Assembly: GCA_017645245.1 (NCBI GenBank)
Contig: JAGCPG010000022.1
Location: 9,519-73,518 of the forward strand
Source of the DNA: Bacteroidales bacterium
GTDB taxonomy: Bacteria > Bacteroidota > Bacteroidia > Bacteroidales > F082
Direction: 5' to 3'
DNA: 64,000 nucleotides
The notes under the pieces were generated by a model. It was not told the origin of the DNA, did not search any database, and saw nothing but the letters and a program-made list of their open reading frames with translations. Shown piece after piece: positions 3,751-48,547 of the stretch. Each line of letters begins with the position of its first letter. Position 1 is the first letter of the stretch. The position numbers and the translations under genes are program-made.

Positions 3751-4896
3751 ATGGATATTCAAAAGATTAAAGAGAAATTCAACTCATTGTTTGGCAATGA
3801 GATGTTTGTATACACCTCCCCTGGCCGCATTAACTTGATCGGCGAACACACCGACTACAATGGCGGTTTCGTGTTTCCGGGAGCTATCGACAAAGGCATC
3901 TTTGCCTGCATCCGTTTGAACGGCACCAAGACAGTTCGAGCTTACTCCATGGATAAAGAAGATTACTGTGAGTTCGGACTTAACGAAGAAGATCTTCCAG
4001 AACAGCACTGGGCAAAATACCTTTTCGGTGTTTGCCGTGAGATAGCGAAGCGTGGTTACACCTTAGGAGGCTTTGATACTGTATTTGCAGGCGATGTGCC
4101 CATTGGCGCTGGCATGTCATCGTCGGCAGCTCTTGAAAGCACCTATGCATACGCACTAAACGAGCTGTTCAGCCTTGGCATTGACAAGTTTGAGTTGGCT
4201 CGTATCGGACAGATGACCGAGCATCATTATGTGGGCGTGAAATGCGGCATCATGGACCAGTTCGCCTCGCTCTTCGGCAAGGCTGGTCACCTGATGCGCC
4301 TTAATTGTGCCACCATGGAGTTCGAGTACTTCCCCTTCAACCCCAAGGGCTACAAGGTGGTGCTGCTCGACACTGTGGTGAAACACGAGCTGGCTTCGTC
4401 GGCCTACAACAAGCGCCGTGCCTCTTGCGAGAACGCCTGCGCCCATATTGCCGCCAAGCATCCCGAGGTGAAATACCTCAGCGATGCCACCCAGGACATG
4501 CTGGATGAAATCCGTCCCGAAATTTCAGGTGAGGACTACCTCCGCGCTTCCTACGTCATCGGCGAGAAGCAGCGTGTGCTGGATGTGTGTGACGCCTTGG
4601 AGAAGGACGATTACGAGACCGTGGGCAAGTGCATGTATGGCACTCATTTCGGCATGAGCAAGCTCTATGAGGTCAGCTGCGAGGAACTGGATTTCCTGAA
4701 CGACATCGCCAAGGAATGTGGCGTAACAGGTTCCCGTGTGATGGGTGGTGGCTTTGGCGGATGCACCATCAACCTGGTGAAGGATGGTCTTTACGATGCC
4801 TTTATCGCCACGGCAAAGGAGAAGTTTAATGCTAAATTCGGTCATGAGCCGAAGGTTTATGATGTTGTCATCTCAGATGGCGCCCGCAAACTCTAA
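3751..4896 (+). CDS. galK: galactokinase
   Basis: GRINLIGEHTDYNGGFVFP, GAGMSSSAALE and GGGFGGC GHMP-kinase motifs. Start MDIQKIKEKF lies 1 nt after the upstream stop. Confidence 0.9.
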   Translation: MDIQKIKEKFNSLFGNEMFVYTSPGRINLIGEHTDYNGGFVFPGAIDKGIFACIRLNGTKTVRAYSMDKEDYCEFGLNEEDLPEQHWAKYLFGVCREIAKRGYTLGGFDTVFAGDVPIGAGMSSSAALESTYAYALNELFSLGIDKFELARIGQMTEHHYVGVKCGIMDQFASLFGKAGHLMRLNCATMEFEYFPFNPKGYKVVLLDTVVKHELASSAYNKRRASCENACAHIAAKHPEVKYLSDATQDMLDEIRPEISGEDYLRASYVIGEKQRVLDVCDALEKDDYETVGKCMYGTHFGMSKLYEVSCEELDFLNDIAKECGVTGSRVMGGGFGGCTINLVKDGLYDAFIATAKEKFNAKFGHEPKVYDVVISDGARKL

Positions 4897-4925
4897 ATTC
4901 TAAATTCATAATTCTTAATTATACA

Positions 4926-17270: not shown

Positions 17271-17327
17271 AGAATTTAGAATTTAGAGAGATTGAAGCGC
17301 CCCCTAAATCTCTAAATTCTAAATTCT
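17271..17327 (+). terminator. 19-bp perfect AT-rich stem-loop between rubrerythrin and ferritin
   Basis: agaatttagaatttagaga (17271-17289) pairs perfectly with tctctaaattctaaattct (17309-17327). It is built from the recurring ctctaaattc motif and has no clear T-tract. Confidence 0.45.
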
Positions 17328-17347
17328 AAACTCTAAATTAACAAAAG

Positions 17348-36328: not shown

Positions 36329-37356
36329 AAAAACGTCTGACCATAGTGCTCGGCCTCGTTGCCATCCTCCTGGTTGTTGCCATTTTGGCAGGTTTCAGGC
36401 TGTACAACATGGTGATGAAGCCCAATGTCATGACACCCGACCAAAAGGAATTCTCCCTGTACATCCCTACGGGCGCCGACTTCGACCAAGTCAAGGATTC
36501 CTTGTATGGCAACCGTTTGATCATTGATCCGGCCAGCTTCGAATGGGTTGCCAGGCACAAAGACTATCCCAGCCATGTGAAACCCGGCCGTTATGTCCTG
36601 AAAAACGGGATGGGCAACAACCAGCTGACCAACATGCTTCGAGGCGGATTGCAGACCCCTGTGAAGGTCACTTTCAACAACATCCGCGACGTGAAGATGC
36701 TGGCGGGACGCATTGGCACTCAGATCGAGGCCGATTCCACAGCCATCCTAGCTTATCTTAAGGATAATGTCAATCTCAATAAATTGGGATTCAATTCTTT
36801 AACTATTCCAACGATGTTCCTTCCCAATACCTACGAATTTTATTGGAACACCGATGCTGAGAGATTTGTGGAGAAGATGAAAGGCGAATATGACAAATTC
36901 TGGAACGAGGAGCGACGAAACAAAGCTAGAGCTCTAGGCCTCTCCCCTGTCCAAGTCAGCATTTTGGCCTCCATCGTCGACAAGGAGACCAACAAGACCG
37001 ACGAGATGCCCCGAATCGCTGGAGTTTATCTGAACCGATTACGTAGCGGATGGCTGCTGCAGGCCGATCCTACCTTGGTCTTCGCCGTAGGCGACTTCGA
37101 CTTGAAACGCGTGCTCAACGTCCATAAGGAAGTGGAATCGCCCTATAACACCTACAAATACGCCGGACTGCCTCCAGGACCTATCTGCATCCCCTCGCTG
37201 CAAGCAATTAATTCAGTTTTAGATGCGGAGAAACACAAATTTTACTATTTTTGTGCGAAAGACGACTTTTCCGGCTACCACGTCTTCGCCAAAACGTTGA
37301 CTGAACACAATCGTAACGCACAGCGATACCAACGTGCCTTGAGCCGAATTCTCTAA
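36325..37356 (+). CDS. mltG: endolytic murein transglycosylase MltG (YceG-like)
   Basis: N-terminal TM. ILASIVDKETNKTDEMPRIAGVYLNRL and NTYKYAGLPPGPICIPS motifs. Confidence 0.85.
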   Translation: MKKRLTIVLGLVAILLVVAILAGFRLYNMVMKPNVMTPDQKEFSLYIPTGADFDQVKDSLYGNRLIIDPASFEWVARHKDYPSHVKPGRYVLKNGMGNNQLTNMLRGGLQTPVKVTFNNIRDVKMLAGRIGTQIEADSTAILAYLKDNVNLNKLGFNSLTIPTMFLPNTYEFYWNTDAERFVEKMKGEYDKFWNEERRNKARALGLSPVQVSILASIVDKETNKTDEMPRIAGVYLNRLRSGWLLQADPTLVFAVGDFDLKRVLNVHKEVESPYNTYKYAGLPPGPICIPSLQAINSVLDAEKHKFYYFCAKDDFSGYHVFAKTLTEHNRNAQRYQRALSRIL

Positions 37357-37376
37357 ATTCTTAAAATCAAATCAAA

Positions 37377-41567: not shown

Positions 41568-41656
41568 GGAGAGGTGGGTGAGTGGCTGAAACCAACAGTT
41601 TGCTAAACTGTCGTATCCCGCAAGGGGTACCGGGGGTTCGAATCCCCCCTTCTCCG
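41568..41656 (+). tRNA. tRNA-Ser (anticodon GCU), class II with long variable arm
   Basis: Acceptor GGAGAGG/CTTCTCC. Anticodon stem ACAGT/ACTGT with loop TTGCTAA. Variable arm GTATCCC-GCAA-GGGGTAC. T-arm GGGGG-TTCGAAT-CCCCC. No encoded CCA. Confidence 0.85.
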
Positions 41657-41665
41657 CGAAGAAAG

Positions 41666-41694
41666 AAGACGATGTTAGGCATCGTCTTTCTTTT
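41666..41694 (+). terminator. terminator-like hairpin between the two tRNA genes
   Basis: aagacgatg (41666-41674) pairs with catcgtctt (41680-41688), followed by tcttttc. Confidence 0.4.
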
Positions 41695-41769
41695 CGGGGT
41701 ATGGCGCAGTCCGGCTAGCGCACCTGCTTTGGGAGCAGGGGGTCGAAGGTTCGAATCCTTTTGCCCCGA
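41695..41769 (+). tRNA. tRNA-Pro (anticodon UGG)
   Basis: Acceptor CGGGGTA/TGCCCCG. D-stem GCGC/GCGC. Anticodon stem CCTGC/GCAGG with loop TTTGGGA. T-arm GAAGG-TTCGAAT-CCTTT. Confidence 0.85.
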
Positions 41770-41830
41770 CAAAATGAAAATCATGGAGTTACGAAGATTC
41801 GTGACTCCTAATTTTTTGAAAAGGCTGAAA

Positions 41831-41886
41831 ATTTGCCCATCATTTGCCCATAGGATTTCGCAAATGGATAAAGATTTGCCCATCAT
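41831..41886 (+). repeat. three direct copies of ATTTGCCCAT(CAT) immediately downstream of tRNA-Pro
   Basis: atttgcccatcat at 41831-41843 and 41874-41886. atttgcccata at 41842-41852. An inverted partial copy (tcgcaaatgg) at 41857-41866. Confidence 0.6.
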
Positions 41887-41920
41887 CTATTTTGATTTTT
41901 GATCACCAAGGAGCATAAAA

Positions 41921-41943
41921 GAGGGTGGCTTTTGACCACCCTC
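41921..41943 (-). terminator. hairpin with T-tract on the minus strand
   Basis: gagggtgg (41921-41928) pairs with ccaccctc (41936-41943). The minus strand reads stem-loop then ttttat. It lies about 450 nt downstream of the minus-strand gene ending at 42395. Confidence 0.4.
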
Positions 41944-42059
41944 AAAACGCAAATTTAGATAACCCATTATAAAATGGGATTGCCTTAGCCGGACAAACGT
42001 CCTTCTAAAACGTGACAAAGATACATTATTTTTTGACACCCGTAACGCCATCATAATTA

Positions 42060-42390
42060 GGTGCATCTTGTTGCCGCTCCTACTCTACCCTTTTTCACGG
42101 ATGAATTCTGACTGGCTGACGAAGGCTGCGGCGGATAAACCGTCACAAGAGGGTGAAACTCCCACCCAGCAGCCTTTGGCAGACAGGCAGCTTTCTGATT
42201 ACTAACATTGTTTGAATGGGTGTGCTGAAGGCTGAGCAATCATGCGAAGCGAGAGCGGGAATGCAGAAACCAAAACATCAACCGAAGGCGGACAATGGCT
42301 GCGGCACACTAATTGCCACCAGAATGCCGTTACTGCGCTCCGCAGCCGTTGGCCGACTGAGGATACATTATAAGGGAAGGCTCCCCGAAA
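42060..42390. other. G+C-rich non-coding segment with long-range helix; possibly a degenerate relative of the 46.0/51.1/53.7-kb repeats
   Basis: No credible ORF. aatggctgcgg (42294-42304) pairs with ccgcagccgtt (42340-42350). It shares the 12-mer gaaggctgcggc (42121-42132) with 53879-53890. Confidence 0.4.
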
Positions 42391-42394
42391 TCAA

Positions 42395-42865
42395 TCAGGA
42401 AGCCTTCACTTTCTTAATAATAACTACCAGTAGTAACGAGAGGATTGCCGCTAAGACTACAACCATACCCAATAGGAACCAAACGGAATTGGGCGGCTTT
42501 TTACTTGGCGGCTCCTCCTCGATGACAACTTGCGCATAATGCACGGTGTCTTCGTAATGGATGGGTTCGGGTTCGGCCTCGTATGTGACTGTGAGGCTGT
42601 CATCAGTGGCCGCTGCCGTGAAGGTACCCTGCTCTGTGGTAACAGTGACAGTTTGGCCGTCAAGTATCGGAGCGAGGGGCATCACGGCTGAATCGACCAC
42701 TGGAGGAAGTGTAATGAAGGTGTCGATGGGATGCGCCTGGATGGTGACCAGTTCCGGGCAGCGTTCCGTCATCCGACGGATGCGACGCTGCGCACGTCGA
42801 TTGGCATCACAAGCACACATGGCCAGCGACACCGTCAATAAGAGGATGATGCAACGTGTCTTCAT
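42395..42865 (-). CDS. lipoprotein with C-terminal transmembrane anchor (unimolecular-spanin-like topology)
   Basis: N-terminal lipobox LLLTVSLAMCAC. C-terminal TM VWFLLGMVVVLAAILSLLLVVII plus KKVKAS. 156 aa. Confidence 0.4.
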   Translation of the reverse strand: MKTRCIILLLTVSLAMCACDANRRAQRRIRRMTERCPELVTIQAHPIDTFITLPPVVDSAVMPLAPILDGQTVTVTTEQGTFTAAATDDSLTVTYEAEPEPIHYEDTVHYAQVVIEEEPPSKKPPNSVWFLLGMVVVLAAILSLLLVVIIKKVKAS

Positions 42866-42869
42866 GGTT

Positions 42870-43124
42870 TTACAGGTTTTCGATCATCTGTTTCAGTTCT
42901 GCGTTTTCAAGAGTGAGCCGGGAGACCTGTGCCGAAAGCCCGACGATTTCACGTCGTGCCTCGGTGAGTTCCTGATAGACACGCTTGTTCTCCTCAACCA
43001 GGTTGAAGATGGTCTGCTGCATCTCACGGATGGTCTTGTTTTGGCGCAGCCGTGTAGCGGCAAGCCAAGAAACAACACCCGCAACAGGTGCCAGCATTGT
43101 TGTTATCCATTCATAGGTGGTCAT
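42870..43124 (-). CDS. small membrane protein with coiled-coil tail (holin- or spanin-like)
   Basis: 84 aa. N-terminal TM ITTMLAPVAGVVSWLAA, then heptad-like QELTEARREIVGLSAQVSRLTLENAELKQMIENL. 4 nt upstream of the lipoprotein gene. Confidence 0.4.
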   Translation of the reverse strand: MTTYEWITTMLAPVAGVVSWLAATRLRQNKTIREMQQTIFNLVEENKRVYQELTEARREIVGLSAQVSRLTLENAELKQMIENL

Positions 43125-43144
43125 GGCTGCACGGTTTTATCAGT

Positions 43145-43816
43145 TTAACGATCGGACTTCTCGGCTCTCGTCTTGATAAAGAATGAACCAAAGCCACGTG
43201 AAGACACATTCTCACCCTTGGTGGAATAAGTGAGGTAGAAGCGAACGGAATCGCCTTCTTCCGCCCAATTGCCGACTGGCACTGTCACGCCCATGCTTGG
43301 GTCGGTGACTTCGGTGTTGAAGACAGCGACCTTCTTTTGGGTGAGGTTGTAGGCTACAGCGATGAAGTTTGCCACAGAAGGCTTGCCAATGATCTCTACA
43401 GCGGTCTCCTCGGCATAGATGGCCAATGAACCATCGATTTCCGAAACGAGGCTCTCGAGCATCGGCGAGTCGATGCGCTCACCGTTGCCGATGCCCTCCA
43501 GCGAGGAAAGGTCAACCGTCTTGACATCATCCACAAACGCAGCGCAAGCGGCGATTTGACGGGTGAGCATATTGCGGCGTGTCAGGCCTCGAGTGGCGGA
43601 CGGAAAGAGCGAGACAAGCTGCTCATCACTGATCTGCCCCACAAGTTCCTGGACTTCCTTGAAGAAATTGCGCTGCTGCACCTGAGCATCGGTGCGAGGA
43701 TTTCTGACTGACTGTGGCTTGCCTTTCATATAGGCAATGCCGTTCCATGAGGAACCGATGACGGTTCCAACGGTACCACGGAATCCACCGAGGATCCCTT
43801 GTTTGATTTTTCCCAT
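43145..43816 (-). CDS. DUF6266-like protein (paralog 1)
   Basis: MGKIKQGILGGFRGTVGTVIGSSWNGIAYMKGKPQSVRNPRTDAQVQQRNFFKEVQELVGQ. The N-terminal ~100 aa are near-identical in pattern to the ORF at 43971..44639. Family name is from memory. Confidence 0.5.
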   Translation of the reverse strand: MGKIKQGILGGFRGTVGTVIGSSWNGIAYMKGKPQSVRNPRTDAQVQQRNFFKEVQELVGQISDEQLVSLFPSATRGLTRRNMLTRQIAACAAFVDDVKTVDLSSLEGIGNGERIDSPMLESLVSEIDGSLAIYAEETAVEIIGKPSVANFIAVAYNLTQKKVAVFNTEVTDPSMGVTVPVGNWAEEGDSVRFYLTYSTKGENVSSRGFGSFFIKTRAEKSDR

Positions 43817-43858
43817 AATCTTCTGTTTTTGATGGTTAATAACTCGTTTTTAATTTTG

Positions 43859-43891
43859 CGGACTTGGTACGGAGTTGGTACGGACTTGATC
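43859..43891. repeat. three tandem 11-bp repeats in the gap between the paralogs
   Basis: cggacttggta / cggagttggta / cggacttgatc at 43859, 43870 and 43881. Confidence 0.6.
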
Positions 43892-43921
43892 CCTACCCAA
43901 CCCATGCCGGAAAAGACCTTA

Positions 43922-43955
43922 AAAAAGCCGTCCAGAAGGGCGGCTTTTTGGCTTG
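43922..43955 (-). terminator. terminator hairpin after paralog 2
   Basis: aaaaaagccgtccagaagggcggcttttt. Stem-loop flanked by A- and T-runs, 16 nt downstream of the stop at 43971. Confidence 0.55.
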
Positions 43956-43970
43956 TCCGGGAAGAGGCTT

Positions 43971-44639
43971 TTAGGCGTTCTTCTTCGGACGGACTGGACG
44001 GTTGGTCACTGGGGTGCCGAAACCGACAAGAGCTTCAGTGGAGCCAGTAGTCAGCATGAAGCCGCTGAAGGTGTCGGTGGCTTCACCGTAAGCGGCCAGA
44101 CCGACATTGAAGGACTTGGCACCTGACGCACCGATTGCGGTGGTGGAATTGATCAAATAGACCTTCTTCTTAGTGACATTGGCCACGAATACCGTGGGGA
44201 ATTCGTCAGCGTGTTCGGTGCGGAAGTCGCCGTCACCGTTCCAAGAGACAGTCAGGTTTTCGCCAGCGGCGGCAATGGTGACATCCGGCATTTCGGCGGT
44301 CGAGGCGTTGCCGAGCGAGTTGATGTTGGCCAGATCAACGGTCTTGGTCTCACCATCGTCAACGGCCACGGCAGCGATTTGCTGTGAAAGCAGGTTGCGA
44401 CGGGTCATGCCCTTTGGCGTGGTGGGTACCAAAAAGGCCAGCTGCTCGTTGGAGAGTTGACCGATGATTTCCTGGACTTCCCTGAAGAAGGCACGTTGTT
44501 TCTGTTGCGCCGGAGTGTTGGCGTTTCTTACGGACTGGGCTTGCCCACGCATGTAGGCGATGCCGTTCCATGAGGAACCGATGACGGTTCCAACTTTTCC
44601 TTTGAATCCTCCGAGGATTCCTTGCTTGATTTTACCCAT
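43971..44639 (-). CDS. DUF6266-like protein (paralog 2)
   Basis: MGKIKQGILGGFKGKVGTVIGSSWNGIAYMRGQAQSVRNANTPAQQKQRAFFREVQEIIGQ. The C-terminal half diverges from paralog 1. Confidence 0.5.
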   Translation of the reverse strand: MGKIKQGILGGFKGKVGTVIGSSWNGIAYMRGQAQSVRNANTPAQQKQRAFFREVQEIIGQLSNEQLAFLVPTTPKGMTRRNLLSQQIAAVAVDDGETKTVDLANINSLGNASTAEMPDVTIAAAGENLTVSWNGDGDFRTEHADEFPTVFVANVTKKKVYLINSTTAIGASGAKSFNVGLAAYGEATDTFSGFMLTTGSTEALVGFGTPVTNRPVRPKKNA

Positions 44640-44817
44640 GATGATTGTTTTTTAGGGGTTAGTAATAAGTGAATTGTCAAGCCGTCACGAACATGGGCAG
44701 TACTCAGCAGGTCATAATCTTTATATTGTTTTGGGCTGCGGTTCTGGTTCCGTTCCTATGACGACGTGACAAAAGTATAATGAAAAACAGATATAAACGG
44801 AGATAAACCGTGGGCGT

Positions 44818-44851
44818 GCCTCTTGTTGCCGTTCGTTGCCTCTTGTTGCCG
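44818..44851. repeat. two direct 14-bp repeats (gcctcttgttgccg) spaced 20 bp in a divergent promoter region
   Basis: Copies at 44818-44831 and 44838-44851. The core tcttgttgccg recurs at 42066-42076. gataaaccgt occurs at 44802-44811 and 42135-42144. Confidence 0.6.
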
Positions 44852-44908
44852 CTTCTATGGAGGGAATGACGGTCTATTTTTGCAGGACAATTAAAAAACA
44901 ATAGCATT

Positions 44909-45526
44909 ATGAAGAAGTTATTTTTATTTATGGCGGCTTTGCTCCTGACGATGAGCAGCTGCCATGGGCATGCGAGCCGCGAAGCGGCGAGCGTGACAAA
45001 GGGTCTGACATGCAGCCTGTCAAGTTGGCCGAGAGGATGTCAGACGGTCGATGACAGTACAAACGTGTTCCTGAAGGTGAGCCGAGTCGTCGATGGCGAC
45101 ACCTTCGAAGGTCGGATTGATGACGGAGGCAATCCGGGCGTGAATCCGTGGGCGCGTGAGCTGACCAAAATCGTGATCAGGGTCAACGGCATCGATGCGC
45201 CGGAACGTGGGCAGTATTATGGTGACGTTGCCACGCTGCACCTGCAGTGGCTTATCAATGGCAAGGTCGTAGGCTTGAAGCTGAAGCAAAAGGACATCTA
45301 TGGCCGATGGATTGCGACGGTCTATCTGGATGGTAAGGACATCGCCGATGAGATGTTGAGTCGGGGCTTGGCCTGGCACTACAAGGAACACGACAGCAAT
45401 CCCCATTATGCTCAACTCGAGACTGAGGCGAGATGGAACGGTTTCGGGCTTTGGTGCGACGACAGGCCAGTGGCTCCGTGGATTTGGCGCACGATGAGCA
45501 AAGACCAGCGTGATGCGTACAGATAA
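44909..45526 (+). CDS. thermonuclease (staphylococcal-nuclease-like) lipoprotein
   Basis: LLLTMSSC lipobox. VVDGDTFEG, VNGIDAPERGQYYG and DIYGRWIATVYLDGKDIADEMLSRGLAWHY SNase blocks. Confidence 0.8.
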   Translation: MKKLFLFMAALLLTMSSCHGHASREAASVTKGLTCSLSSWPRGCQTVDDSTNVFLKVSRVVDGDTFEGRIDDGGNPGVNPWARELTKIVIRVNGIDAPERGQYYGDVATLHLQWLINGKVVGLKLKQKDIYGRWIATVYLDGKDIADEMLSRGLAWHYKEHDSNPHYAQLETEARWNGFGLWCDDRPVAPWIWRTMSKDQRDAYR

Positions 45527-45544
45527 TGCAGGAAGGAGGAAACC

Positions 45545-45907
45545 ATGGAACTGTCAGAATTATCAAAAAAGAGACTGGAGGGCGTGGATGAACGCCTGAA
45601 AGCAGTAGTAATGGAGTGCGCCAATCGTTGCCCCTTCCCTTTTAACGTGTCGGAAGGGCTGCGCACGGTGGAAAAGCAACGTGAGTATGTGAAGCAGGGA
45701 AAGTCGAAAACGATGAACTCAAAACACCTTGTAGGGAAAGCCGTGGACTTGTACCCGCTGAGCATGGACAGAAAGGTCGTTGACTGGTCGAGGTTTGAGG
45801 AGTTGGCGGAATTGATTTTTCAAGTGGCCAGCGACCAGAACGTCGGCATCATCTGGGGAGGAAACTGGAAAAACTCCTTTGACAAATGCCACTTTGAGTT
45901 GAGATAG
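45545..45907 (+). CDS. M15-family peptidoglycan peptidase (phage-endolysin-like)
   Basis: 120 aa. SEGLRTVEKQREYVKQGKSKTMNSKHLVGKAVDL and GGNWKNSFDKCHFEL (H..D..H zinc pattern of the M15/VanY-like fold). Confidence 0.7.
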   Translation: MELSELSKKRLEGVDERLKAVVMECANRCPFPFNVSEGLRTVEKQREYVKQGKSKTMNSKHLVGKAVDLYPLSMDRKVVDWSRFEELAELIFQVASDQNVGIIWGGNWKNSFDKCHFELR

Positions 45908-45942
45908 CTTTGTCCAACAGATCTTTTTTCTCGTTTTTCCAG

Positions 45943-45975
45943 AAGTCCCAGTCGCAAGGCTGGGATTTCTTTTTG
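45943..45975 (+). terminator. rho-independent terminator after the M15 peptidase gene
   Basis: aagtcccag / ctgggattt forms a 9-bp stem with loop tcgcaagg, followed by tctttttg. Confidence 0.65.
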
Positions 45976-45990
45976 TCGGCTGTAGCCTCC

Positions 45991-46244
45991 GGCAGGTTTG
46001 GGGCGGGATGAACAAGATGTGGAGCCCGTAGGGCGGAACACCTTAAAGGGTGGGATTCTTTGGGAGCGAAAGCTCAGGGTGCGGGAGCGCGCAAGGGATT
46101 GGAGGGGCTTGGTGCGAAGTGCAACGGAGCACCGAAGCGAAGCGGAGCCCCGGAAAGCCCGACCCCGACGGCCTTCGAGACACCTCTACCCTATCGACAA
46201 AAACCGGCCGGCCGGCGGGGATGCGCCCAAAAGAAAAAAAAGAG
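45991..46244 (+). repeat. G+C-rich structured repeat, copy R1 (internally deleted variant)
   Basis: It shares a 46-nt identical block (46095-46140 = 51414-51459), the left end ggcaggt(g)tttg, the ggcggaacacc(c)ttaaagggtggg module and the right end gcgcccaaa with copy R2. No credible coding frame. Confidence 0.75.
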
Positions 46245-46252
46245 TATTTTTG
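46245..46252 (+). promoter_or_regulatory. -7 promoter box (TATTTTTG) directly after repeat R1
   Basis: tatttttg lies 25 nt upstream of ATG 46277. Confidence 0.45.
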
Positions 46253-46276
46253 TCACGACAGAAGATAAAACACCCT

Positions 46277-47434
46277 ATGGGCATCATCAAGTATAAACGA
46301 GCGAAAAACGACAACGATGAAATCGTAAACATCGAAGAAGTCACACCTGAGATAAGGAAAGCGAATAAGTTTACCTGTATTTCGTGTGGACAAGAGTTGT
46401 CGGCATGCCTTGGGAGCAAAAACCAACATCACTTCAGGCACAAAACCGAAGTGGATTGCAACATTGAGACCTATCTTCATAAAATGGGCAAATATACTTT
46501 TGTAAAAGCCTATACCGAATGCCTTGCCAAAGGAAAACCATTCATTATTACCTTAAAGCGGAAAGTGTCTTGTGTGAAAGAAGGAAACTGTCAGGTTAGA
46601 CACTATTATGGCAGCTATCCAGATGTATGCAACACATACGGATGGGAGGACTTTGATCTGACACAATACTATGATAGCGTTGCTGAAGAGCAAACCGTTG
46701 GGTCTTTTGTCGCCGACATTCTTTTGAATAGTAGTAAGGGTTATCCGCCAATTCTCGTTGAAATCATGGTCTCCCATGCCTGCGAAGAGAACAAAAAACA
46801 ATCGGGCTATAGAATCATTGAGATAGAGCTTCATAAAGAAGAAGATTTGGAACTAATTGAATCATGTCAACTAAGACAATCGGAACCCACAGAAAGAGAT
46901 TACTACTTAGATATAGATAGCAGGAATACAAGAAGAAATAAAGAAAAAGCTCCAACTGTAAAATGTTACAATTTCCGTGGTGCCAAGAAGGAGTTACTGA
47001 ATTATTTTAAGGTATATCAATTTGCCATATACAAGAACAACCCTTCTCGTTTCAGCCTAAATGAAACGGTACAATGCGGAGAGAAGGATAAATTGATTGA
47101 ACGCCACCGAAAGGAGAATAACCTACTTTACGAGATATTGTTTTACAATGAAGGGTTGTGGGGTGCAGGTAGATTTGTGTTTGGTGTGGCCAAAGCCTTT
47201 GAAAGGGGTTTCAATATACGGAATTGCTTCCTATGCAGATACCACGCCAACAATGAGAATCGATTTACCCAAGAAGAAGACAAACCGTTTTTCTGCAAGT
47301 TATATAAAAAGCTACAGACCAAGCCCCAATGCAACTCCACACAAGCCATCAACTGTGATGCTTTCGTTCCCGACAAAAAAGCCTACGCCAACTATTTGTT
47401 GTTTTCAGATAGCTATGAAGAAATAACCTATTGA
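46277..47434 (+). CDS. CoiA-like family protein (Zn-ribbon plus PD-(D/E)xK-type nuclease core)
   Basis: Start MGIIKYKRAK. FTCISCGQELSACLGSKNQHHFRHKTEVDCNIETYLHKMGK matches the CoiA N-terminal C..CG.EL...HF.HK...C...H..K pattern. Core FVADILL...ILVEIMVSH. The upstream 93 codons of ORF 45998..47434 run through repeat R1 and are rejected. Confidence 0.55.
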   Translation: MGIIKYKRAKNDNDEIVNIEEVTPEIRKANKFTCISCGQELSACLGSKNQHHFRHKTEVDCNIETYLHKMGKYTFVKAYTECLAKGKPFIITLKRKVSCVKEGNCQVRHYYGSYPDVCNTYGWEDFDLTQYYDSVAEEQTVGSFVADILLNSSKGYPPILVEIMVSHACEENKKQSGYRIIEIELHKEEDLELIESCQLRQSEPTERDYYLDIDSRNTRRNKEKAPTVKCYNFRGAKKELLNYFKVYQFAIYKNNPSRFSLNETVQCGEKDKLIERHRKENNLLYEILFYNEGLWGAGRFVFGVAKAFERGFNIRNCFLCRYHANNENRFTQEEDKPFFCKLYKKLQTKPQCNSTQAINCDAFVPDKKAYANYLLFSDSYEEITY

Positions 47435-47465
47435 GGTCGTTAGTGTTCCTAATGAAAAATAATGC

Positions 47466-47473
47466 TAAATTTG
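47466..47473 (+). promoter_or_regulatory. -7 promoter box (TAAATTTG)
   Basis: taaatttg lies 22 nt upstream of ATG 47495. This favours the MTQENKD start for the Fic gene. Confidence 0.4.
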
Positions 47474-47494
47474 CACTCAGATTCCAAGCTAACA

Positions 47495-48547
47495 ATGACC
47501 CAAGAGAACAAGGACATATTGCTTCGGTTGCTTCAGCGGTACCATGAGCTGGGCATTGCTGACCAGATAGACTTTGAGAAGTTCTACCTGTACTCTATCA
47601 TTGTCCATTCCACTGCCATTGAAGGATCGACTGTGACGGAGGTGGAAGCGCAGCTGCTGTTTGATGAAGGCATCACCAGCAGCAAGCGCACCATGATGGA
47701 ACAGCAAATGAACCTGGATCTGAAGGTGGCTTACGAGTATGGTCGGGAATGGATCAGGAAGTACCAGCCTATTACCGTTGACTGGCTCGTACTTTTGGCC
47801 TCGAAGGTGATGGCGCACACAGGAAGTGAGTACCATTCAATGGGTGGCGATTTCAACGCCGCCAAGGGTGAGCTGCGCAAACTGAATGTCACTGCAGGTT
47901 TGGGCGGCAAGTCGTATATGGCTTACCAGAAGGTGCCGGCGAAGCTGGAGGCCTTTTGCAAGGAACTGAATGAACGCCGCAAGGCCATTGACCCCAAAGA
48001 TGTTGCGGCAGTGTATGACCTAAGTTTCTGGGCGCATTATGAGCTGGTGACCATTCATCCGTGGGCGGACGGCAACGGACGCACCTGCCGATTGCTGATG
48101 AACCTGCTGCAGTGGGAGTTTGGCGTGTTGCCGACCAAGGTTCTGAAAGAAGACAAGGCTGAGTATATCCAGGCATTGATTGACACTCGCGAGAGCGAGG
48201 ATATCGACCTATTTCTCAACTGCATGGCAGGGTTACACTGCAAGCACCTTCAGGCCGATATCGACCAATATTTGAAGTCAACCACGGGAAAAATGGTCGA
48301 TAAATCGGGTTTGAGACAGAAAATGGTCGATAAATGGTCGATAAAGCCCAGTTTAGCCAAGAAATTGGTCGATATTTTGGAATTCATGGCCGATAAGGAT
48401 GAAATCACTACCGAGATTGTCATCAAGCATTTCGGCTTCACTCCAACCACAGCCAAGCGTTATCTTCGACAGCTGACAGAATTTGGCTACCTTGAAGCCC
48501 ATGGTGGAAACAAGAATCGCAGCTATACAAAACGGACAGACTTATGA
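47495..48547 (+). CDS. Fic-family protein with C-terminal winged-helix-like region
   Basis: Canonical Fic motif HPWADGNGRTCRLL. Confidence 0.8.
   Translation: MTQENKDILLRLLQRYHELGIADQIDFEKFYLYSIIVHSTAIEGSTVTEVEAQLLFDEGITSSKRTMMEQQMNLDLKVAYEYGREWIRKYQPITVDWLVLLASKVMAHTGSEYHSMGGDFNAAKGELRKLNVTAGLGGKSYMAYQKVPAKLEAFCKELNERRKAIDPKDVAAVYDLSFWAHYELVTIHPWADGNGRTCRLLMNLLQWEFGVLPTKVLKEDKAEYIQALIDTRESEDIDLFLNCMAGLHCKHLQADIDQYLKSTTGKMVDKSGLRQKMVDKWSIKPSLAKKLVDILEFMADKDEITTEIVIKHFGFTPTTAKRYLRQLTEFGYLEAHGGNKNRSYTKRTDL

Follow-up and report, generated by a model that had tools for sequence, protein, structure and literature searches.

Three copies of a GC-rich element, distributed in a phage-derived gene island of a rumen Bacteroidales bacterium, are predicted to fold as RNA around one conserved core, whose side stems range from 11 to 148 nt in length among the copies known to date. 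The element matches no catalogued RNA family and is probably a new large bacterial RNA, the function of which is inferred only and is not yet known. The stretch of DNA analysed, hereafter the window, comprises 64,000 nucleotides (GenBank assembly GCA_017645245.1, contig JAGCPG010000022.1, positions 9,519 to 73,518 of the forward strand). All three copies, R1 (45991-46233), R2 (51082-51551) and R3 (53692-53918), are read from the + strand, and share the core GGGAU-N-AACAAG-W-UGUGGA [stem] GGAAC-N-CC-loop-GGGUGGG, in which the stem consists of an 11-nt hairpin in R1, of 115 nt in R2 and of 65 nt in R3. The copies and their surroundings are organized as follows.

41568-45907 (both strands): conserved part of the island, comprising tRNA-Ser and tRNA-Pro (41568-41770), a spanin-like lipoprotein with a C-terminal TM (42395-42865, -), a holin-like TM/coiled-coil protein (42870-43124, -), two DUF6266 genes (43145-43816 and 43971-44639, -), an SNase (44909-45526, +) and an M15 endolysin (45545-45907, +).
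45941-45970 (+): intrinsic-terminator-like hairpin plus T-run of the M15 peptidase gene, immediately upstream of R1 and conserved in the related locus L016.
45991-46023 (+): R1 left end and conserved 5' junction strand (GGCAGGUUUGGGGCGGGAUGAACAAGAUGUGGA).
46024-46034 (+): R1 variable stem in its minimal form, GCCC-GUA-GGGC, at the same position as R2 51251-51365 and R3 53833-53897.
46035-46054 (+): R1 3' junction strand GGAAC, small hairpin CACC-UUAAAG-GGUG (present in the MFE and centroid folds) and terminal GGG.
46055-46078 (+): R1 linker (hinge) with a small hairpin GAGC-GAAA-GCUC (46064-46075), the site where related copies carry inserted opposite-strand cargo.
46079-46233 (+): R1 3' module, with a closing helix GCGCA (46089-46093) / UGCGC (46222-46226), a tail helix 46163-46173 / 46210-46220 and a variable-tip stem GGUGC...GCACC, ending in GCGCCCAAAAG.
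46243-46250 (+): TATTTTTG, a Bacteroidetes-type -7 promoter motif (TAnnTTTG) just after R1, ahead of the CoiA-like gene (ATG at 46277); R2 has the equivalent TATCTTTG at about 51585-51592.
51082-51227 (+): R2 left end plus 5' domain, with a base helix 51105-51115 / 51202-51212, an inner helix GGCUGC/GCAGC and a variable tip.
51228-51385 (+): R2 core, with the junction strand, the 115-nt variable stem (51251-51365), GGAAC, the small hairpin and GGGUGGG.
51386-51551 (+): R2 linker (51386-51397) and 3' module (51398-51551).
53692-53918 (+): R3, a 5' half only (5' domain, core and 65-nt variable stem 53833-53897), ending at GGGUGGG, 3 nt before the stop codon of the convergent gene 53922-54542; a profile search (nhmmer) found no 3' module elsewhere in the window.

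A preliminary description, in which R1 was proposed to replace a domain of some 100 nt by a minimal hairpin, proved correct to the base. The left end ggcaggtttg occupies 45991-46000, GGGATGAACAAGATGTGGAGC occupies 46005-46025, gccc-gta-gggc occupies 46024-46034, GGCGGAACACCTTAAAGGGTGGG occupies 46032-46054, and the right end gcgcccaaaag occupies 46223-46233. The block identical to R2 (46095-46140) lies within a 62-nt repeat that is 97% identical, and the R1 and R2 3' modules share 83-97% identity. The stem of R2 runs over 51251-51365 (GCCAU.../...AUGGC), that of R3 over 53833-53897 (GCUCUCUG/CAGAGGGC). The 21-nt motif GGGAU-N-AACAAG-W-UGUGGAGC occurs three times in the window against 0.02 expected by chance, and the second motif, GGCGGAAC-N-CC...GGGUGGG, also occurs three times against 0.00 expected. 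However, the lack of the 5' domain in R1 (R2 about 51098-51227) was not shown to fall at a helix boundary; the junctions carry short direct repeats (GUUUG / CUUGUG) and the left end of R1 aligns with the 3' end of that domain. The elements contain 60-63% G+C with a positive GC skew, in flanks of about 40% G+C. The ORFs that overlap them, e.g., 51254-51649 (+) and 51213-51692 (-), are spurious, because the copies differ by indels that are not multiples of three.

To identify other copies, the 21-nt motif was scanned in 185,579 species genomes and in JGI metagenomes, and true copies were recovered only from rumen/caecum Bacteroidales MAGs and rumen-type metagenomes, the other hits being chance matches inside coding sequence. 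Further copies came from contigs encoding homologues of the neighbouring M15 peptidase and of the DUF6266 protein. The loci recovered in this way are designated below by L followed by a number. No true hit was obtained from IMG/VR with three conserved motifs, the one locus read there (L019) being coding sequence, and blastn searches of R2 against INPHARED phages and PLSDB plasmids gave no match. Altogether, 22 distinct copies were available for comparison, counting those of the window.

In these 22 copies, the stem located between GUG(G/A)A and (G/U)(G/A)AAC is 11 (R1, L003b, L006a), 12, 27, 28, 64, 65 (R3), 114, 114, 115 (R2), 118, 118, 125 (four copies) or 148 (five copies) nt long, and always begins GC and ends GC. 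With the eight outer positions of each strand aligned and the interior masked, 78% of cells form standard pairs, against 34-48% when the 3' partners are slid by 1-3 columns, and five of the 8 pairs show changes on both sides, e.g., GCCAU/AUGGC, GCCGC/GUGGC, GCGCU/AGCGC and GCUCU/AGGGC. No shuffle out of 500 reached the observed covariation, although the copies come from few related lineages, which inflates these statistics in part. Two chance occurrences of the motif in coding DNA (L014, L017) show no such pairing. The long form consists of a nearly continuous rod of 37 pairs with four compensatory pairs, so that R1 really does replace a rod of ~100 nt by a cap made of 4 bp and a 3-nt loop at the helix base. 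The proposal of a structured RNA with a stem of variable length at a fixed position is thus supported by the homologues, even though some copies are truncated without regard to helices.

The other regions of the element display a similar organization. The 5' domain, closed by GCUGGCGGCAU/AUGCCGACAGC plus GGCUGC/GCAGC, shows 91% of paired cells against 17-65% when slid, with three compensatory pairs and several C-G to U.G changes. Its tip represents a second expansion site, the domain ranging from 52 to 360 nt. The 3' module, closed by GCGCR/YGCGC, contains an 11-bp tail helix that changes almost completely between copies (CCCCGACGGCC/GGCCGGCGGGG against CCGCCGGCGGC/GCCGCCGGGGG), with 88.9% of paired cells against 31-54% when slid and six compensatory pairs. 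The GGUGC...GCACC stem of this module serves as a third expansion site, with a tip of 13 nt in R1 and R2, 3 nt in L034a and about 70 nt in L011. A building block made of a helix, a symmetric GGA/GGA purine loop and a further helix or a GC-loop-GC mini-hairpin recurs at the core, at the tip of the 5' domain, inside the long variable stem and in the 3' module; as judged from the sequence, the register of the GGA/GGA loops does not fit a standard k-turn. The long-range pairing of the 5' domain with the 3' tail, which appears in the MFE fold of R2, was rejected because each region has its own covarying local helices. A pairing of CUUGU with ACAAG is not supported, since five copies have ACACG with no compensation. 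No pairing partner is known for GGGAUNAACAAGAUG or for the terminal GGGUGGG, and the A/U polymorphism in GGAAC-N-CC is unexplained. Complements of the conserved single-stranded motifs, searched in the window as possible trans targets, occur only in the elements themselves.

With respect to the strand and the nature of the molecule, R2 folds to -231.2 kcal/mol as + strand RNA (z -6.14), whereas z values of -2.51, -2.94 and -2.52 were obtained for the - strand RNA, the + strand DNA and the - strand DNA, respectively. In addition, the supported helices contain 21 G.U cells against 9 A.C cells, and 50 purine-purine cells. These results favour a + strand RNA, although R1 alone folds no better than shuffled sequence (z +0.14). 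Covariance-model searches against Rfam 15 gave only two tRNAs at the gathering threshold on the whole window, and only tRNAs and chance hits at E<=10 on 45000-55000 and on L011, L006 and L013, and at E<=1 on L021 and L024. In particular, no hit was obtained with ROOL (RF03087), GOLLD (RF01998), HEARO/IscB omega RNA (RF02033) or the models of group II introns and HYER-type ribozymes (RF00029 and the group-II-D1D4 models). In this last respect, CUACCCUAUCGAC in the 3' module only superficially resembles a domain VI branch-site strand, and no 34-nt domain V hairpin is present. The literature searched contains no description of the element.

The element consists of two halves, a 5' half made of the optional 5' domain plus the core and ending in GGGUGGG, and a self-contained 3' module, joined by a variable linker of 10-120 nt. 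Depending on the locus, these halves are adjacent or split by an opposite-strand cargo gene. In L013, L006 and L003, the linker holds 750-900 nt of opposite-strand cargo, e.g., a HEPN/nucleotidyltransferase toxin-antitoxin pair or single ORFs, which has its own TAnnTTTG promoter next to the 3' module and, in L013, its own terminator next to the core. The copy of L003, split by about 750 nt, nevertheless keeps the homologous GAGUGAAAGUUCAGG. No conserved crossover site was found in the linker. Besides the length changes that respect helices, plain truncations occur: several copies, including R3, are 5' halves only, and L021 keeps only the last ~25 nt of the 3' module. Not every copy need be functional.

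All copies found lie in one type of island next to tRNA genes. The order comprises a tyrosine integrase (Phage_integrase) of 466-500 aa, which is missing in the window, a spanin-like lipoprotein with a C-terminal TM, a small TM/coiled-coil protein, two to four DUF6266 genes, a secreted SNase and an M15 endolysin, and the same order, usually with the integrase next to the tRNA, occurs in L021, L022, L024, L028, L034 and L016. No attR-like repeat of the tRNA-Pro 3' end was found in the window. Two direct repeats (AAAnGGnTnAAnATTTGCCCATCAT; 41819-41843 and 41862-41886) located just after tRNA-Pro, where sister islands carry the integrase, may be leftover integrase or regulator binding sites. Repeats of the GCCTCTTGTTGCCG type (42057-42082 and 44810-44857), with two tandem copies in the divergent DUF6266/SNase promoter region and one near 42060, may be an operator. 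The two tandem DUF6266 paralogues of the window are 42% identical and share a conserved N-terminus that includes an RNPRT motif reminiscent of the HU arm. The family is absent from PHROGs and from the literature searched. Considered as a possible RNA-binding partner, it gave an AlphaFold model (pLDDT 67) predicting a disordered N-terminus, helices and an FN3/Ig-like sandwich, with only generic FN3/Ig-like matches that are uninformative.

The conserved genes are followed by a variable region carrying AbiE, CBASS-like genes, Schlafen/AlbA, GmrSD/DUF262, McrBC-like genes, type I restriction-modification, a reverse transcriptase, Fic, nitroreductase, radical-SAM and other genes. In the 11 distinct islands that hold both (L039, a second copy of the window's own island, being counted with the window), every copy points the same way as the SNase-M15 genes, whatever the orientation of its immediate neighbours. 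Copies often begin 5-32 nt after the stop codon of a co-oriented cargo gene, or behind a terminator-like hairpin (R1, L034a). None of 11 distinct left ends has a + strand TAnnTTTG motif within 120 nt upstream, whereas 7 of 14 distinct right ends have one within 120 nt downstream. A 34-nt repeat, 85% identical (AATAGCGAnTnAAnCCTnCTnTTTGTATCTTTGC), which contains a Bacteroidetes-type promoter, occurs ahead of the radical-SAM gene (49724-49757) and directly after R2 (51560-51593); the cassettes share promoter modules. The cargo differs between conserved copies, the window and L003 having the same R1-like and R2-like flanks with different genes between them. Similarly, in L037, a near-identical strain, R1 is intact and the cassette is replaced starting exactly at the GCGCC|AAAA end of R1: a gene of 342 aa on the opposite strand, with a faint DUF7828 hit, takes the place of the CoiA-like gene (L037 1900-3500, compared with window 46233-47500). 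The swap stops at ATGACCCAAGAG of the Fic gene, which suggests that the true start of the Fic gene is the internal Met at about 47495.

Taken with moderate confidence, the best explanation is that R1, R2 and R3 are paralogous copies of an uncatalogued, modular, structured RNA element, confined in all sequences found to this type of island in rumen/gut Bacteroidales. Its conserved core is built from two junction strands (GGGAUNAACAAGAUGUGGA and GGAAC), a small hairpin and GGGUGGG, whereas the three peripheral stems act as expansion segments, each of which can be a long rod or be capped after a few base pairs without touching the core. R1, devoid of the 5' domain and with an 11-nt stem, represents the naturally minimised form. 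From the lack of a promoter motif of its own and its frequent position just behind a stop codon, it is inferred that the element is made by read-through from the cargo gene upstream, and that it would form the structured 3' end of cargo transcripts and mark the boundary of a transcription unit, since a new promoter often follows. As co-oriented repeats of 80-97% identity, the copies would also provide homology anchors between which cargo genes are exchanged. However, in 4 of 11 distinct left ends (R3, L003b, the R2-like copy in L003 and L011b) the upstream neighbour is a divergent gene, so that read-through cannot explain transcription there, and no canonical promoter motif was found; the terminator-like hairpins preceding R1 and L034a also speak against it.

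A less likely possibility, which shares the RNA reading but differs on how the RNA works, is a trans-acting, stand-alone ornate RNA of a prophage-like element in the manner of GOLLD or ROOL, released from the transcript and acting as an RNA-only or RNA-protein assembly during induction of the island, with the peripheral stems as decorations. A size of up to about 700 nt (L006), with many junctions and conserved unpaired strands, the location next to tRNAs and phage lysis genes, and the repeated GGA/GGA loops, which could be protein-binding or RNA-RNA contact sites, are in favour of this view. Like the present element, ROOL and GOLLD are large, GC-rich, many-helix bacterial RNAs of unknown function with peripheral helices of variable length, often found next to tRNAs and in prophage-like regions (PMC5737381), and ROOL was first seen in cow-rumen metagenomes. 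By contrast, the present element occurs in Bacteroidales as 2-3 diverged copies and half-copies per island instead of one intact gene, is placed at the 3' ends of cargo genes without a promoter motif of its own, has halves that can be separated by 750-900 nt of antisense cargo, and matches neither model.

More doubtful is a folded single-stranded DNA site, analogous to integron attC sites (such as the Vibrio cholerae repeats) or to single-strand origins, recognised in one orientation by a recombinase or by replication/transfer machinery and delimiting gene cassettes. Co-oriented conserved repeats at the 3' ends of cargo genes in a variable array beside a tyrosine recombinase, the reverse-oriented toxin-antitoxin cargo with its own promoter in L013, the variable terminal stem at a fixed position, the cassette swap starting exactly at the end of the element and the absence of a promoter are all consistent with such a site, and loops such as GCGAAGC and C-GNA-G, as well as GAA triloops, may form very stable mini-hairpins in DNA. 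However, the DNA folding signal is weak compared with that of RNA. The elements, of 64-700 nt, display several independent covarying helices, and a size of 250-700 nt with multi-helix junctions and long conserved unpaired sequences is three to ten times that of attC sites, which are typically single imperfect hairpins of about 57-141 nt. The ends read (CCA)CCGGCAGG ... GGGGAYGCGCCCAAA in all full copies, without RYYYAAC/GTTRRRY boxes, the linker that receives cargo has no conserved crossover sequence, only 1-3 copies occur per island, most cargo genes are not separated by a copy, and the integrase sits by the tRNA like an ordinary island integrase.

A non-autonomous mobile element (MITE/PATE-like, or the structured ends of a transposon carrying cargo) is very unlikely: in spite of the defined ends ((CCA)CCGGCAGG ... 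GCGCCCAAA), the halves flanking unrelated cargo in L013, L006 and L003, the "empty" forms with abutted halves and the several copies per island, no transposase, TnpB/IscB or reverse transcriptase was found among the ORFs of at least 100 aa scanned at 42.4-59.3 kb in the window, no target-site duplication or clean empty versus filled orthologous site was seen on comparing the ends and the syntenic sites after the M15 gene, which always carry some form of the element or other non-coding elements (a comparison that does not decide the point), all copies have one orientation and occur in one kind of island, with none recovered from IMG/VR, INPHARED phages or PLSDB plasmids, and the compensatory changes show selection on the fold rather than recent copying.

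Other known systems resemble the element in single respects. REP/BIME-type intergenic repeats, structured repeats in 3' untranslated regions which may stabilise upstream mRNA and act as recombination substrates, are 20-40-nt palindromes present in hundreds of copies genome-wide, whereas the R elements, of 64-700 nt, have a conserved multi-domain fold and are confined to one island. The HEARO/omega RNAs of IscB-TnpB elements are structured RNAs of 200-400 nt tied to the ends of mobile elements, with orphan copies, but no IscB, IsrB or TnpB gene was identified by Pfam among the neighbouring ORFs or in the gene tables of 16 related loci. The expansion segments of rRNA and the variable helices of RNase P and group I/II introns show the same evolutionary behaviour, a helix at a fixed position growing or being capped while the core stays constant, as an analogy of behaviour only, without sequence or model similarity. 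Large, intricately folded bacterial RNAs are rare, and nearly every class found so far (RNase P, group I/II introns, OLE, GOLLD, ROOL, raiA) has led to new biochemistry. In this respect, the new family offers a natural deletion series, from the 64-nt minimal 5' half of R1 up to about 700 nt in L006, which shows which parts are core and which are decoration. Its strict association with the variable, defence-gene-rich part of the island and its position at the borders of swapped cassettes raise the possibility that an RNA, or its folded DNA, organises gene-cassette turnover in Bacteroidales, a phylum where integrons are essentially unknown.

In a more speculative and rather improbable reading, the R elements, together with other long gene-free conserved stretches of the sister islands, would be the RNA components of a previously unrecognised cassette system in Bacteroidales, in which a giant modular RNA (64 to about 700 nt), whose two halves tolerate whole genes inserted between them, marks each cargo unit and is recognised by island-encoded factors to process, stabilise or exchange defence-gene cassettes, i.e., an RNA-marked functional analogue of an integron, or else a new class of ornate RNA that assembles with island proteins. 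Tandem units of about 75 nt, rich in GGAGCG/GCGGAGC, occur right after the M15 terminator in sister islands (L024 10690-10880; L021 10674-10931; L026 1555-1745; L030 3834-4129; L033 2562-2839) and are absent from the window. A second conserved gene-free GC-rich element of about 620 nt ("type-B", 84-94% identical between islands; L024 10880-11500; L008 1808-2378; L021 10895-11518; L026 1745-2364; L027 1369-1987; L028 10891-11498; L030 4131-4752) has a core-like GGGGGYGAAACRAGAUG-CGC-UUUA-GCG-CUCCGA, but no Rfam hit, and its similarity to R is not significant (nhmmer E 0.11). A non-coding unit of about 430 nt, repeated 2-3 times per island and often directly upstream of an R 5' domain (L021 11680-12680; L026 4450-5945; L027 3265-4422; L028 11654-12130 and 13772-14347; L030 4894-5338 and 6596-7033; L008 2513-2980), contains short direct repeats like CGTGCTATCGTGCTAACG, which may be protein-binding DNA sites and also occur in the R linker of L021 and L030. 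Finally, intergenic repeats of the CTCTAAATTCTAAATTC type, unrelated to the R elements, are dispersed in the higher-GC part of the window (4880-4921, 17299-17340 and 37344-37364).
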